A stretch of DNA of 64,000 bases from a virus. The stretch covers positions 64,001 to 128,000 of the IMG/VR virus record IMGVR_UViG_3300036939_000082, one strand, 5' to 3'. The notes under the pieces are model-generated. The model was not told where the DNA came from, ran no database searches, and worked only from the letters and a program-made list of their open reading frames with translations. Shown piece after piece: positions 22,170-53,766 of this stretch. Both the position numbers and the translations under genes were made by a program. Position 1 is the stretch's first letter, and each line of letters starts with the position of its first letter.

Positions 22170-22299
22170 TCAAGTCAAAGTCAAGCAACTTTTCTGAGCT
22201 TTGAGAATCTCGATCGCCAGATCTAAATTTAACGACACCGAATCTAGAGCTGACACCCGATTTTCAAGTTCGGTGATTTGCCTCGACCGAGCAATCGCC
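22170..22299 (-). pseudogene. Diverged relic of the last ~43 codons of the IPT/TIG gene
   Basis: AIARSRQITELENRVSALDSVSLNLDLAIEILKAQKSCLTLT* vs AIAQSRQISELEQRMMAMDSMQLNLDLAIAILKAQGSSLSLL* (22889-23018); same 130-nt length. Confidence 0.85.
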
Positions 22300-22400
22300 T
22301 TTTTGCAGTTAAAATATTTAATACATCGATTAATATCTTGTTTAATTTAATTACTTAAGTTATAATATAATTAAGTACAAATTAATCACAAAACAAACAA

Positions 22401-22775
22401 ATGGGAACTAAAACTCTAAAAATCCATGCAAACAAGGAAGATTTTCCATCTTCTGTTTCAACTGAAGAGGTCTTAAAACTCGTTGAACAAATGTGGGTTA
22501 ATTATGTCAAAAAAATACTCAAAGCTGTTCAAACAACAATTGAACTACCTAGCGAACGTTTGTCAGAAGAAGAATTAGATAAACTTTCTTCTGAAAGTTC
22601 ATTTGAATGTGATGTGTTTAAATGGAAATATTTAACACAAGATGAACCTACCTGTATAACAGGTAGTCTCGAAGTATCTTGTCCCGAGTGCACCCCAGAA
22701 ATCATTGGAAATCATTGGGGTAGCCCTAGCGAATACCCTTGGATTAAATTTTCAGAAAAAGTTTCTGATAAATAA
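22401..22775 (+). CDS. Hypothetical accessory protein
   Basis: 124-aa AT-rich ORF with TATAAT near 22360 and terminator 22834-22874. Confidence 0.75.
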   Translation: MGTKTLKIHANKEDFPSSVSTEEVLKLVEQMWVNYVKKILKAVQTTIELPSERLSEEELDKLSSESSFECDVFKWKYLTQDEPTCITGSLEVSCPECTPEIIGNHWGSPSEYPWIKFSEKVSDK

Positions 22776-22833
22776 CTCAAGTCTTGAGATAACAGCCATT
22801 AAAGCACTAGCAAGTTAATAATGGTTAAATGAC

Positions 22834-22874
22834 AAAAAGCCTGCAATCTAAATCAATAGATTGCAGGCTTTTTT
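22834..22874. terminator. Bidirectional terminator
   Basis: AAAAAGCCTGCAATCTA...TAGATTGCAGGCTTTTTT. Confidence 0.85.
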
Positions 22875-22888
22875 GTGTCAAATTTCGA

Positions 22889-23707
22889 TCAAAGCAAACT
22901 TAAACTGCTTCCTTGAGCCTTGAGAATCGCGATCGCCAGATCGAGATTCAACTGCATCGAATCCATTGCCATCATTCGCTGCTCAAGTTCTGATATTTGC
23001 CTCGACTGAGCGATCGCCATTGAACTCAAGCTACCGACCATTGCCATCAAAACATCTTGAGGTGTAGATTCTGGGGTTTTAAGTTCCCAGCGAATCCAAC
23101 TATTCGTCGCCATATCCCAATATTCAAATCCGTCGCCCACAGTCCTAAAAGTAGGATTCGGGACGGGATGCAAAACTTGGAACGATTCCGAATCCTCGCC
23201 TGCAACAGTTTTAACTTTTAACAGAAGGTTGCCCGGTTCGACAGCGGGAATTTTGACTCGAATTTTGCTCGAATCAATTACAGCAACGTCTGTAGCGGGT
23301 ACATCGCCAAAAAATACGGATGTCGCTGGTGTAAATCCGGAACCTTTAATCGTCGCGATCGCCCCGACAACAGGAGAATCCGCGCAAACAACCTTAATGC
23401 TGGGGGGAGGCTGCGGTTTTATCGGCGGGGGCGGTGGAGAAATTACAGAGTCGCTGTTGATCGCCACCCGTACTGCGTTGGACTTTACCCCGGCGCGATC
23501 GGCGACAACAAAGTAAGTTCCCGGAGGGACGGCTGGGACAACCGCCGAGATTTGAGTTTGGCTGTGGAATGTTGTCTTTAATTTTACAGTTTCCCCTAGC
23601 TGAATAAAAGTTTCCTTTGTAAATCCGCTGCCGTTAATCGCAATCCTTTTGTTTGGCAGTACCAGCCAAGGGGAGATTGACACAATGCGAAGAGGTTTAA
23701 GAATCAT
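22889..23707 (-). CDS. IPT/TIG-domain protein (two domains) with C-terminal coiled coil
   Basis: ISPW...IAINGSGFT...HSQTQISAVVP; ATIKGSGFTPATSVFFGDVPATDVAVIDSSKIRVKIP. Confidence 0.85.
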   Translation of the reverse strand: MILKPLRIVSISPWLVLPNKRIAINGSGFTKETFIQLGETVKLKTTFHSQTQISAVVPAVPPGTYFVVADRAGVKSNAVRVAINSDSVISPPPPPIKPQPPPSIKVVCADSPVVGAIATIKGSGFTPATSVFFGDVPATDVAVIDSSKIRVKIPAVEPGNLLLKVKTVAGEDSESFQVLHPVPNPTFRTVGDGFEYWDMATNSWIRWELKTPESTPQDVLMAMVGSLSSMAIAQSRQISELEQRMMAMDSMQLNLDLAIAILKAQGSSLSLL

Positions 23708-23708
23708 G

Positions 23709-24278
23709 TTAGAAACTGTTCCCGAACGCGCCGTAATCGCCGATCATTTCTACGTCATCGTAAGATAGGGTCATTGACAGCGTACAAAGATCCTCGCCGT
23801 CCATGTCAAAGTCCGGGATTTCGCAAGAAGATGGGAAGACTCCAATTAACTTGCAAACAATAGGTGGATTCTCGTCATACAAGCGGTGATAAATAATTGA
23901 CACTAATTTTTTGTATTTAGGGTCAATCCCCGGAACAGCCCCGTAAGTTTTGGCAGCAACGTCGCCGCCGGTTGCGTTGACTAACTCCCTAGTTCGCGCA
24001 TAGGTAGCCCGCAAAGCAGAACCGCGGTCGATACACATGGAAAACCACCGCATATATTCGTTTCTAGCTTTGTCGTCGGCAAAGTCTAGTGTGATGCCAA
24101 AATCGCCCGGGTTGATCCGACCGATCGGAACTTTAGTTTTATCCGGGCGATCGGCTGTAGCAATTTCAATGTTGATTGCATCCCTAGTAATAATTCGGTT
24201 GCATTCAGGCAATCCTTCGACAACAAATCGCTGCTTGTTTTGAGGGATCGGATTTGGAGATAAAGTTGCTTTACGCAT
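23709..24278 (-). CDS. Tail tube protein (T4 gp19-like)
   Basis: Follows sheath; QRFVVEG, GDFGITLDF...YMRWF, LSMTLSYD. Confidence 0.8.
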   Translation of the reverse strand: MRKATLSPNPIPQNKQRFVVEGLPECNRIITRDAINIEIATADRPDKTKVPIGRINPGDFGITLDFADDKARNEYMRWFSMCIDRGSALRATYARTRELVNATGGDVAAKTYGAVPGIDPKYKKLVSIIYHRLYDENPPIVCKLIGVFPSSCEIPDFDMDGEDLCTLSMTLSYDDVEMIGDYGAFGNSF

Positions 24279-24299
24279 TGTACAGAAACCTCAAAAAAG

Positions 24300-52516: not shown

Positions 52517-52541
52517 GAAGCTGACCTGTGATAGAGGTTAG

Positions 52542-52586
52542 TGTTCCTAGGGTTTCGGTGTTAGCTGCACCAGCCCGTGAGGAACA
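52542..52586 (-). promoter_or_regulatory. Structured leader hairpin upstream of antirepressor
   Basis: TGTTCCT-CAC-GGG-CT-GGTG-CAGCTAA-CACC-GAAA-CCC-T-AGGAACA, 26 nt before ATG. Confidence 0.6.
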
Positions 52587-52845
52587 TTTTTATTATATCT
52601 TGGCAAGCTCGGTAATTACCAATCGTCTCGTTTCAAAAAAATGGCAGTCGAACGAACCACGCATGATTTGACCGACCGATCGCCAGCTACAGTTATGCGA
52701 TCGCGTTAGGCGGAACGAGCCGAAACAGAGGGTCGCCCGATGACCAGCGAAAAAATTGCAGAAAAGTCGGGATTTGGCGAAGATTGACGGGTGTTGCGGG
52801 TGATCGGGCAAAACCGATTGAATTAATTAATCTAATTTAAAGCAC

Positions 52846-52884
52846 AAAAAAAGCCTTTGGAAGTGTTAATTCCAAAAGCTTTTT
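52846..52884. terminator. Bidirectional terminator
   Basis: AAAAAAAGCCTTTGGAA...TTCCAAAAGCTTTTT; resembles 897-929 in inverted orientation. Confidence 0.75.
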
Positions 52885-52909
52885 ACATCGATCTAGTGAA
52901 TAATTTGCA

Positions 52910-53266
52910 TCAACCCAGTGAATAAGTAGTTGCGTTACTGATGCAATTCAATTGGTGTAGAAGAATCTCCCAATTTGGATCGTCATAACGGATGACTATT
53001 GCGGGAACAGATTCACCGCGTAGTGGATCGAGTTTGTATGCTCTTAATGCTGCATAGCACTGAAAGTGACCCGACAGAATCTGGTAAGAAGGATTTATTT
53101 CGTCTCCCTTCCTTAGCAAGACTGGAGGAGTCACGAACCCGCCTATCTCTAAACTCTTTTGCGCTGCGTAGTTTAAATTATCTTCAGAAAATTTTAATTC
53201 AGAGTGATCGGCGGGATCAAAGTGAATTTTTTTAACTGCAACAATCGTCAAGAGTAATTTGTGCAT
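52910..53266 (-). CDS. ParB N-terminal-like domain protein
   Basis: AAQKSLEIGGFVTPPVL...YQILSGHFQCYAAL...VPAIV. Confidence 0.7.
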   Translation of the reverse strand: MHKLLLTIVAVKKIHFDPADHSELKFSEDNLNYAAQKSLEIGGFVTPPVLLRKGDEINPSYQILSGHFQCYAALRAYKLDPLRGESVPAIVIRYDDPNWEILLHQLNCISNATTYSLG

Positions 53267-53355
53267 AATTTGCGTGTTACATTGTTTTTGTTCTACAACA
53301 ATTATATCACACAATTCACTAGAAAAACTCGTATTGTTCCCAATCAAAATTTGTT

Positions 53356-53616
53356 CTATGTTTTATTCGATCTTCTTAATATTTCTTTTTTGACTTCAAT
53401 TCCTATAGTATCCACGCGATTAGACCTTCTATAAGTGTCTATCGTTTCATCATCCATTTCATCGACCCATAATGTAATTAAACTTTTGTGGAATTCAGTA
53501 GGTTGTTTTTTGTAACACAAACCTGAAAAGTCTTCTTGATTAACTACAGACTTGAATGTTTCGCAGAAAAACGCTGTCTTTAAAAGAAAACTTAAGAAAT
53601 GCTTGTTAATGCTCAT
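53356..53616 (-). CDS. Hypothetical accessory protein
   Basis: AT-rich 86-aa ORF between 29-bp diverged direct repeats. Confidence 0.6.
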   Translation of the reverse strand: MSINKHFLSFLLKTAFFCETFKSVVNQEDFSGLCYKKQPTEFHKSLITLWVDEMDDETIDTYRRSNRVDTIGIEVKKEILRRSNKT

Positions 53617-53664
53617 AATTTTTGTTTTGTGTTTTTGACTTCAATTAATCATAACATACAAACA

Positions 53665-53766
53665 CTAGAAAAGTTCGTACTGTGCGCGATCGCTGATAAA
53701 TTCAATTAAAGTTTCAACTGAACCTACTACCTTTAGCTCTGTTATATCATCCGTCGATAATTCCAT
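53665..53766 (-). CDS. 33-aa small protein
   Basis: MELSTDDITELKVVGSVETLIEFISDRAQYELF*; its 3' end is duplicated with the reading frame preserved at 53317-53345. Confidence 0.4.
   Translation of the reverse strand: MELSTDDITELKVVGSVETLIEFISDRAQYELF

Follow-up and report, generated by a model that had tools for sequence, protein, structure and literature searches.

HIP1-type words at recombination joints of a HIP1-rich provirus: a weak association, probably reflecting passive use of common short identities

The stretch of DNA analysed here (the window, 64,000 nucleotides) comprises bases 64001-128000, the middle third, of the IMG/VR virus record IMGVR_UViG_3300036939_000082 (G000), a single record of 188,942 bp that is rich in HIP1, the palindrome GCGATCGC with the core CGATCG. 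We find that the recombination joints of this genome are probably ordinary phage mosaic joints in which HIP1-type words acted as passive patches of identity, so that no HIP1-specific enzyme is needed. The association of HIP1 with joints is absent for duplications and weak for mosaic joints, where it is about twofold and depends on the method; the best reading combines passive use of the commonest short identity, capture of alignment ends and post-hoc selection of examples. A first-pass annotation of the window had proposed that duplication breakpoints coincide with HIP1 and that the phage may use HIP1 as the crossover point for gene gain. Single joints at a relic of a gp5-like gene, at a relic of an IPT/TIG-domain gene and at an indel at 3143-3165 do fit recombination at HIP1-type words, but a HIP1-specific mechanism finds no support and the general claim fails.

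Much of the evidence comes from comparison with G001 (IMGVR_UViG_3300035684_000001, 188,553 bp), a collinear relative that supplies the empty sites. The two genomes align in 91 chained blocks separated by 90 gaps, with ~136 kb aligned at 82% identity. Further IMG/VR scans with portal, cargo open reading frame (ORF) and IPT queries returned no relative besides G001, and a scan of metagenomes returned only one distant 1.2-kb fragment. Protein searches yielded five closer gp5 homologues, and the DNA of two of these shorter fragments, L025 and L026, was used for local comparisons with G000 and G001.

HIP1 is strongly over-represented: the window holds 34 copies of the octamer against 1.1 expected and 189 of CGATCG against 15 expected, and the whole of G000 holds 127 and 608, respectively, the latter amounting to one per 311 bp. 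Words containing CGATCG make up a growing share of the identical word pairs in G000, from 2.7% of 6-mers to 14% of 8-mers, 30% of 10-mers and 39% of 12-mers. Moreover, each of the eight best-conserved frequent hexamers between G000 and G001 is related to HIP1 (conservation 59-68%, mean of frequent hexamers 36.5%), and HIP1 is therefore maintained in the phage DNA, beyond mere inheritance. Microcystis phage Ma-LMM01 (positions 1-50000; GC content 45.7%) has one CGATCG and one GCGATCGC, so the richness in HIP1 is particular to the G000 phage lineage; with just one CGATCG in 50 kb, Ma-LMM01 was dropped as an independent replicate.

The claimed coincidence of duplication breakpoints with HIP1 does not survive the permutation test that was proposed for it. 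Taking all BLAST pairs that are neither arrays nor hairpins, we obtained 112 junctions (58 in G000, 54 in G001), and CGATCG lies within 2 nt of the junction in either copy at 0 of 58 (4.0 expected) and 3 of 54 (3.2 expected), respectively. When junctions were shifted locally so that motif density was kept, the 3 observed over the whole set compared with 3.3-6.1 expected, and relaxed motifs (one-mismatch HIP1, GATCG, ATCGCC and ATCG) gave no excess at duplication junctions either. A hand-picked set of 16 junctions has 3 at the full octamer against 0.2 expected; HIP1 had guided the choice of these junctions, and the three matches include the 28.5-kb case refuted below. No HIP1 was found at the ends of the duplicated pairs at 34.4, 35.4 and 36.0 kb or of the older capsid pair, and the annotation's own caveat, that the 37.7-kb and capsid pairs show no clear HIP1 at their ends, holds.

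At mosaic joints a signal does appear. Among the 180 block ends of the G000/G001 alignment, 10 in G000 and 8 in G001 lie in or touch CGATCG where ~3-4 are expected (p 0.0006-0.03 under uniform, run-end and gene-boundary-matched nulls), and 14-22 lie 0-3 nt from CGATCG in either genome against 7.6-13.9 by local-shift permutation. With scoring suited to 82% identity the excess is about twofold (p 0.006-0.02), and it is gone with the three stricter of five scoring schemes. When 212 frequent hexamers are ordered by their enrichment at block ends, CGATCG takes only rank 24-29, the full octamer has no significant excess there, and 158 of the 180 junction ends (~90%) have no HIP1 core within 3 nt. 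Since HIP1-related hexamers are the best conserved, alignments are expected to be captured at their edges by HIP1, and such capture accounts for part of the twofold excess. A site common to both genomes stands exactly at a block edge in 4-7 cases, and a truncation null, in which the trimming of alignments is modelled, leads one to expect 2.6-4.9; such edge sites had looked like a signal under the run-end null (6 against 1.1-2.3), but the significance was lost under the truncation null. Chance extension of alignments into unrelated flanks was also rejected as a source of such ends, at an estimated ~5e-5 per junction.

The gp5 relic is the best-resolved joint. Relative to G001, which has an empty site with one terminator and one gp5 start, G000 carries an 855-bp insertion that consists of the displaced gene start and its cargo (Table 1). 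The motifs named in the first-pass annotation, the restart at ATCGCCC (41323), CGATCGCCC at 41137 and GATCG at 42177, are all present, and the empty site sharpens the case. The right end of the relic is the junction, with GAGAAAATCG on its left and CCCACC on its right, and the joint itself reads GAGAA(A)ATCG followed by CCCACCGCCCG. The sequence past the joint aligns with CCGATCGCCCGCC in G000 and CCGATCGCCCACCCGATCGCCC in G001, both of which lie upstream of the terminator, and we therefore place the joint at a crossover within the 5-bp GATCG that connects codon 39 of gp5 with a half HIP1 located past the KilA-N stop. The 5-bp GATCG microhomology is seen directly as the overlap of both parental sequences. 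The example is robust, though a near-HIP1 site is found in only one parent. The two sequences have only GATCG in common, and no HIP1 stands at the other end. In the other molecule the ORFan cargo would already have stood between two copies of the terminator. All three terminator copies at gp5 fold into hairpins (terminator fold z -2.1 to -3.5). Within the cargo, the T2 stem lies at 41356-41378 and the ORFan at 41440-41904 (154 aa; 231 aa if read from 41209); it matches nothing in Pfam or PHROG, and its only homologue is itself. The 231-aa form is carried by a second contig.

The IPT relic is less sharply bounded. It is 71% identical to the 3' end of the intact gene region, and the homology ends at GCAATCGCC/GCGATCGCC, give or take ~15 nt. 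The motifs that the first-pass annotation had aligned there (GCAATCGCC at 22291-22299, GCGATCGCC at 23010-23018) are in place, but the edge itself is uncertain by ~13 nt: a 9/11 match to the intact IPT gene of G001 begins 2-3 nt beyond HIP1, and the homology may extend ~13 nt past it. Only one of the two ends qualifies as lying at HIP1. In G001 a different ORF occupies the position of the cargo and the relic is shorter, ending at CGAT within the other HIP1, as would follow from the loss of 125 bp between CGAT words. In both genomes the IPT relic fits recombination at HIP1-type words.

At 53.3/53.7 kb, an element that reads CGATCGcgcaca(a/g)tacga..ttttctagtg on the minus strand and is confined to these two places brackets a cargo ORF of 86 aa (53356-53616). 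The pair is below blastn detection at E 1e-3. The octamer stands in P2 where it had been reported, and because the L026 blocks end at 53345 and, at the other copy, at 53693 with homology restarting at 53694, HIP1 forms the outer edge of this duplicated promoter-upstream element. The 28.5-kb pair fared differently. Its copies do open with GCGATCGCC/GCGATTGCC in the window, but the copies in G001 have at least 11 more nt in common to the left of the motif, where the site reads GAGATCGCC, so HIP1 lies within the repeat and is not its boundary.

Table 1. Window coordinates of the features at and around the joints discussed in the text
Feature	Position	Strand	Remarks
Empty site GCGATC-TCGCCC	3143..3165	.	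G001 has +334 bp between direct GATCGCCCG 9-mers
IPT relic: bidirectional terminator and last ~150 nt of IPT/TIG gene	22101..22302	-	Ends at GCAATCGCC (22291-22299)
IPT cargo between relic and gene	22303..22825	+	Promoter-like leader common to G001; ORF 22401-22775 (124 aa, no family)
Terminator and 3' end of intact IPT/TIG gene (22889-23707)	22826..23021	-	HIP1 at 22929-22936 and 23010-23017
Two copies of hairpin-bearing intergenic element (28483-28545, 28583-28645)	28483..28645	+	Kept in G001, where HIP1 is internal
IS605-family TnpB-only element and 49-bp tandem duplication	37682..39091	-	TnpB 37826-39001; absent from G001; no HIP1 at ends
CGATCGCCC just past KilA-N gene stop	41137..41145	.	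Homologue of donor-side crossover word; from alignment with G001
gp5 relic (displaced copy): terminator T1 and first 39 codons of gp5-like hub gene	41156..41326	+	92% identical to 42011-42181; single-copy in G001
gp5 cargo, 684 bp	41327..42010	+	Absent from G001; half-HIP1 leader CCCACCGCCCG, terminator T2, ORFan
Terminator T3 and start of intact gp5-like gene (42064-46476)	42011..42181	+	Crossover word GATCG at 42177-42181
P1, copy of 31-nt promoter-upstream element	53317..53346	-	HIP1 position degenerate (CCCAATCA); homology to G001 and L026 stops at 53345
P2, copy of the same 31-nt element as P1	53663..53693	-	Ends in GCGATCGC (53686-53693); L026 homology restarts at 53694

The indel at 3143-3165 is the cleanest HIP1-flanked one of the G000/G001 pair: the GATCGCCCG repeats that bracket the extra DNA of G001 can be read directly, and G000 retains one copy. 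Four segments of the window are directly seen to be absent from G001 (30743-32303, 34311-34845, 37737-39091 and 41327-42010), and most of the G000-specific insertions in the window, namely the IS605 element at 37.7 kb and those at 30.7-32.3 and 34.3-34.8 kb, have no HIP1 at their ends. The G000-specific insertions are cassettes or morons in the sense that they are absent from a close collinear relative and lie at gene boundaries; across the alignment, block ends are a median of 25 nt from a gene boundary, compared with 181 nt for random positions. Promoter-like -10 boxes were recognised by eye only. Among 20 clean indels, ~3 have CGATCG no more than 3 nt from the joint, which is near chance by a hand estimate; elsewhere the overlaps are rich in AT and look like ribosome-binding sites, start codons or terminators, as is typical of gene boundaries.

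The 37.7-kb insertion has the marks of an IS200/IS605 TnpB-only element: a TnpB with OrfB_IS605, Cas12f1-like TNB (zinc-ribbon) and helix-turn-helix domains (Pfam E 9e-32, 1e-25 and 6e-19), a PHROG transposase match at 1e-136, an empty site in G001 and close copies in Microcoleus genomes. It differs in the adjoining 49-bp tandem duplication of its target gene, the 5' end of an AAA-ATPase gene (36875-37765), which is unusual as an IS605 footprint; HIP1 is uninvolved. The 535-bp insertion at 34311-34845 starts with a hairpin end (cttgacatcatccaccccggcg) like the left end of the insertion sequence at 37.78 kb, and it may be a non-autonomous derivative of the latter. The segment at 30743-32303 is of low GC content (32%) and includes an AAA_15 ATPase fragment and a paralogue duplication (30543-30819/31241-31517, 82%); it contains almost no HIP1, as one would expect of recently acquired DNA.

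A history that would account for these arrangements is the insertion at gene boundaries of small accessory-gene cassettes (morons) with their own putative promoter and/or terminator, together with one IS605/TnpB element. Displaced copies of the neighbouring gene end would most simply have arisen when a pair of related genomes underwent two crossovers, one of them illegitimate, at a few identical bases, and the other homologous, in a shared terminator, promoter or gene. HIP1-type words, as the commonest repeated short words and those best conserved between relatives, would be the ones that short-identity processes find most often. Since words with CGATCG form 14-39% of repeated 8-12-mers, short-homology recombination would land on HIP1 passively, and abundance and conservation together would be enough to give the twofold signal at block ends. 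Several observations weigh against this account. For a 5-bp microhomology the passive share is ~3%, and abundance alone would therefore not lead one to expect the gp5 joint. Across nulls, 14-22 of the 180 block ends are at CGATCG against 5.6-13.9 expected (p 0.0003-0.02), and a gene-boundary confound for this excess had to be rejected because CGATCG is not enriched near gene ends. Finally, among the ~17 pairs of displaced gene-end copies beside cargo in both genomes, the in-gene joint falls at a HIP1-type word in 4-5, where a rough hand estimate of chance gives ~1.2-2.3; the excess in this class is suggestive, not decisive.

A rival reading is that HIP1 or CGATCG actively promotes recombination in this phage and its host, as a Chi-like stimulator of homologous exchange or as a site of cutting and rejoining, and so starts a minority of cassette gains (~5% of mosaic joints). 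Such a role would be in keeping with the block-end excess, which is obtained under the r4p5 and r2p3 schemes, the scoring nearest to maximum likelihood at 82% identity. Several joints fall within the hexamer and have one-sided homology (gaps 28, 46, 71 and 83), 4 of 32 ends match in the comparison of L026 with G000 or G001 (1.9 expected), the phage encodes two C5 cytosine methyltransferases, for which CGATCG methylation is putative, and the literature holds a HIP1-flanked deletion, plasmid recombination and a methylation-dependent Chi-like effect. The excess does not, however, survive the stricter scoring schemes, intragenomic repeat ends and the full octamer are without it, about nine-tenths of junction ends have no core nearby, and the phage has no recognisable RecA, RecT, ERF or Sak4 recombinase. 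We regard an active role as unlikely. The broader view of CGATCG/HIP1 as a genuine recombination hotspot, at which HIP1-rich cyanobacteria and their phages gain cassettes, is doubtful too; its signs here would be the excess of about twofold among mosaic joints and the joints at which displaced copies of gene ends break off within the gene.

At the other extreme, the HIP1-type words at the noted joints may have played no part at all and have been singled out by selection from coincidences. CGATCG (one per 311-340 bp) and ATCG (one per 133 bp) are dense enough, and the motif set of the first-pass annotation loose enough, that a chance match is expected for 18-29% of pairs, and at least 4 matches in 6-8 pairs have P 0.01-0.17. 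The unbiased sets are null, one of the four original examples falls (28.5 kb) and another is uncertain by ~13 nt (IPT). Pure coincidence is nonetheless improbable in our judgement: the gp5 word is demonstrably the overlap of both parents, a 9-mer direct repeat brackets the indel at 3.15 kb, and against several nulls the excess between genomes reaches nominal significance. As to the original coincidence claim, then, every motif is where it was said to be and the gp5, IPT and 53.7-kb edges stand to the extent described, but the 28.5-kb pair and the unbiased repeat ends do not bear it out.

Phages acquire morons, and illegitimate or short-homology recombination creates their mosaic joints at the boundaries of genes (Hendrix-type mosaicism); in T4-type phages repeated regulatory cassettes mediate modular shuffling. 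The joints described here share with such mosaicism the insertions at gene boundaries, cargo with its own putative terminator or promoter, identity of a few bases at the joints, and repeated terminator and promoter elements that flank the cargo. They differ in that some of the identities are halves of a host-type palindrome, HIP1, and in that copies of neighbouring gene ends (171 bp and ~200 bp) are retained.

Recombination at HIP1 itself has precedents in cyanobacteria. As related in PMC13756078, a 352-bp deletion with HIP1 at its borders was found in Synechococcus (Gupta 1993); PMC4390886 reports recombination at HIP1 in plasmids, for which it cites Akiyama 1998, and in cloned DNA. Robinson 1997 belongs to the same body of work on Synechococcus that these two articles summarise. 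The direct HIP1-type repeats that bracket the 3143-3165 indel, with one copy at the empty site, and the joints at or in CGATCG resemble these deletions; the present case differs in concerning a phage genome, in involving mostly half sites (GATCG, CGAT) and in the lack of an excess for duplications. A methylation-dependent, Chi-like effect of methylated HIP1 on transformation has been described (bioRxiv 10.1101/2024.09.10.611283), and a Chi-like or uptake-signal role has been proposed for methylated HIP1 (bioRxiv 10.1101/2024.09.10.611283; PMC13756078). Such a role would predict more exchange near HIP1, but it concerns the efficiency of homologous recombination or uptake and not the position of illegitimate joints. 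The HIP1 papers searched make no mention of phages.

After 30 years the function of HIP1 is still an open question, on which joints formed by natural recombination would be direct evidence; the G000/G001 pair offers 180 mosaic joints in DNA with a host-like density of HIP1. Most of the anecdotal coincidences with HIP1 do not hold up in unbiased tests. HIP1 words prevail among the short repeats and are better conserved than any others, and they would thereby both attract short-homology recombination and trap alignment ends; future claims of HIP1 recombination need a null that covers availability as well as alignment capture.

G000 is a HIP1-rich myovirus-type provirus (provirus according to IMG/VR; CheckV completeness 98%; GC content 43.4%). 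Its phage genes include a portal gene, a tail sheath/fibre gene (24300-27302), a KilA-N gene (40646-41134), the gp5-like baseplate hub gene (42064-46476) and the IPT/TIG-domain gene (22889-23707). Its hosts are probably Microcoleus-like cyanobacteria, a group suggested by the window TnpB, which is 85-90% identical in amino acids to Microcoleus copies. No near match to G000 was found in phage or plasmid collections, and an Rfam search of the window gave no match. Upstream of the window, G000 54478-55650 and 57041-58228 encode the two C5 cytosine DNA methyltransferases, both full-length, one of which may be a CGATCG methylase; a D12-class Dam was not found in G000. A recurring intergenic element, GAGCGACCGATCGCCCGG followed by a run of T, stands directly upstream of start codons (G000 18564-18606 and 20682-20725; G001r 26160 and 28699), and the HIP1 in it belongs to a terminator-like repeat. 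Seven tandem repeats of 66 nt (22 aa) occupy 215-822 of the window within ORF 137-877, with related arrays at G000 33390-34022 and 182726-183049, and these 22-aa repeat proteins are probably a family of the leucine-rich-repeat type.

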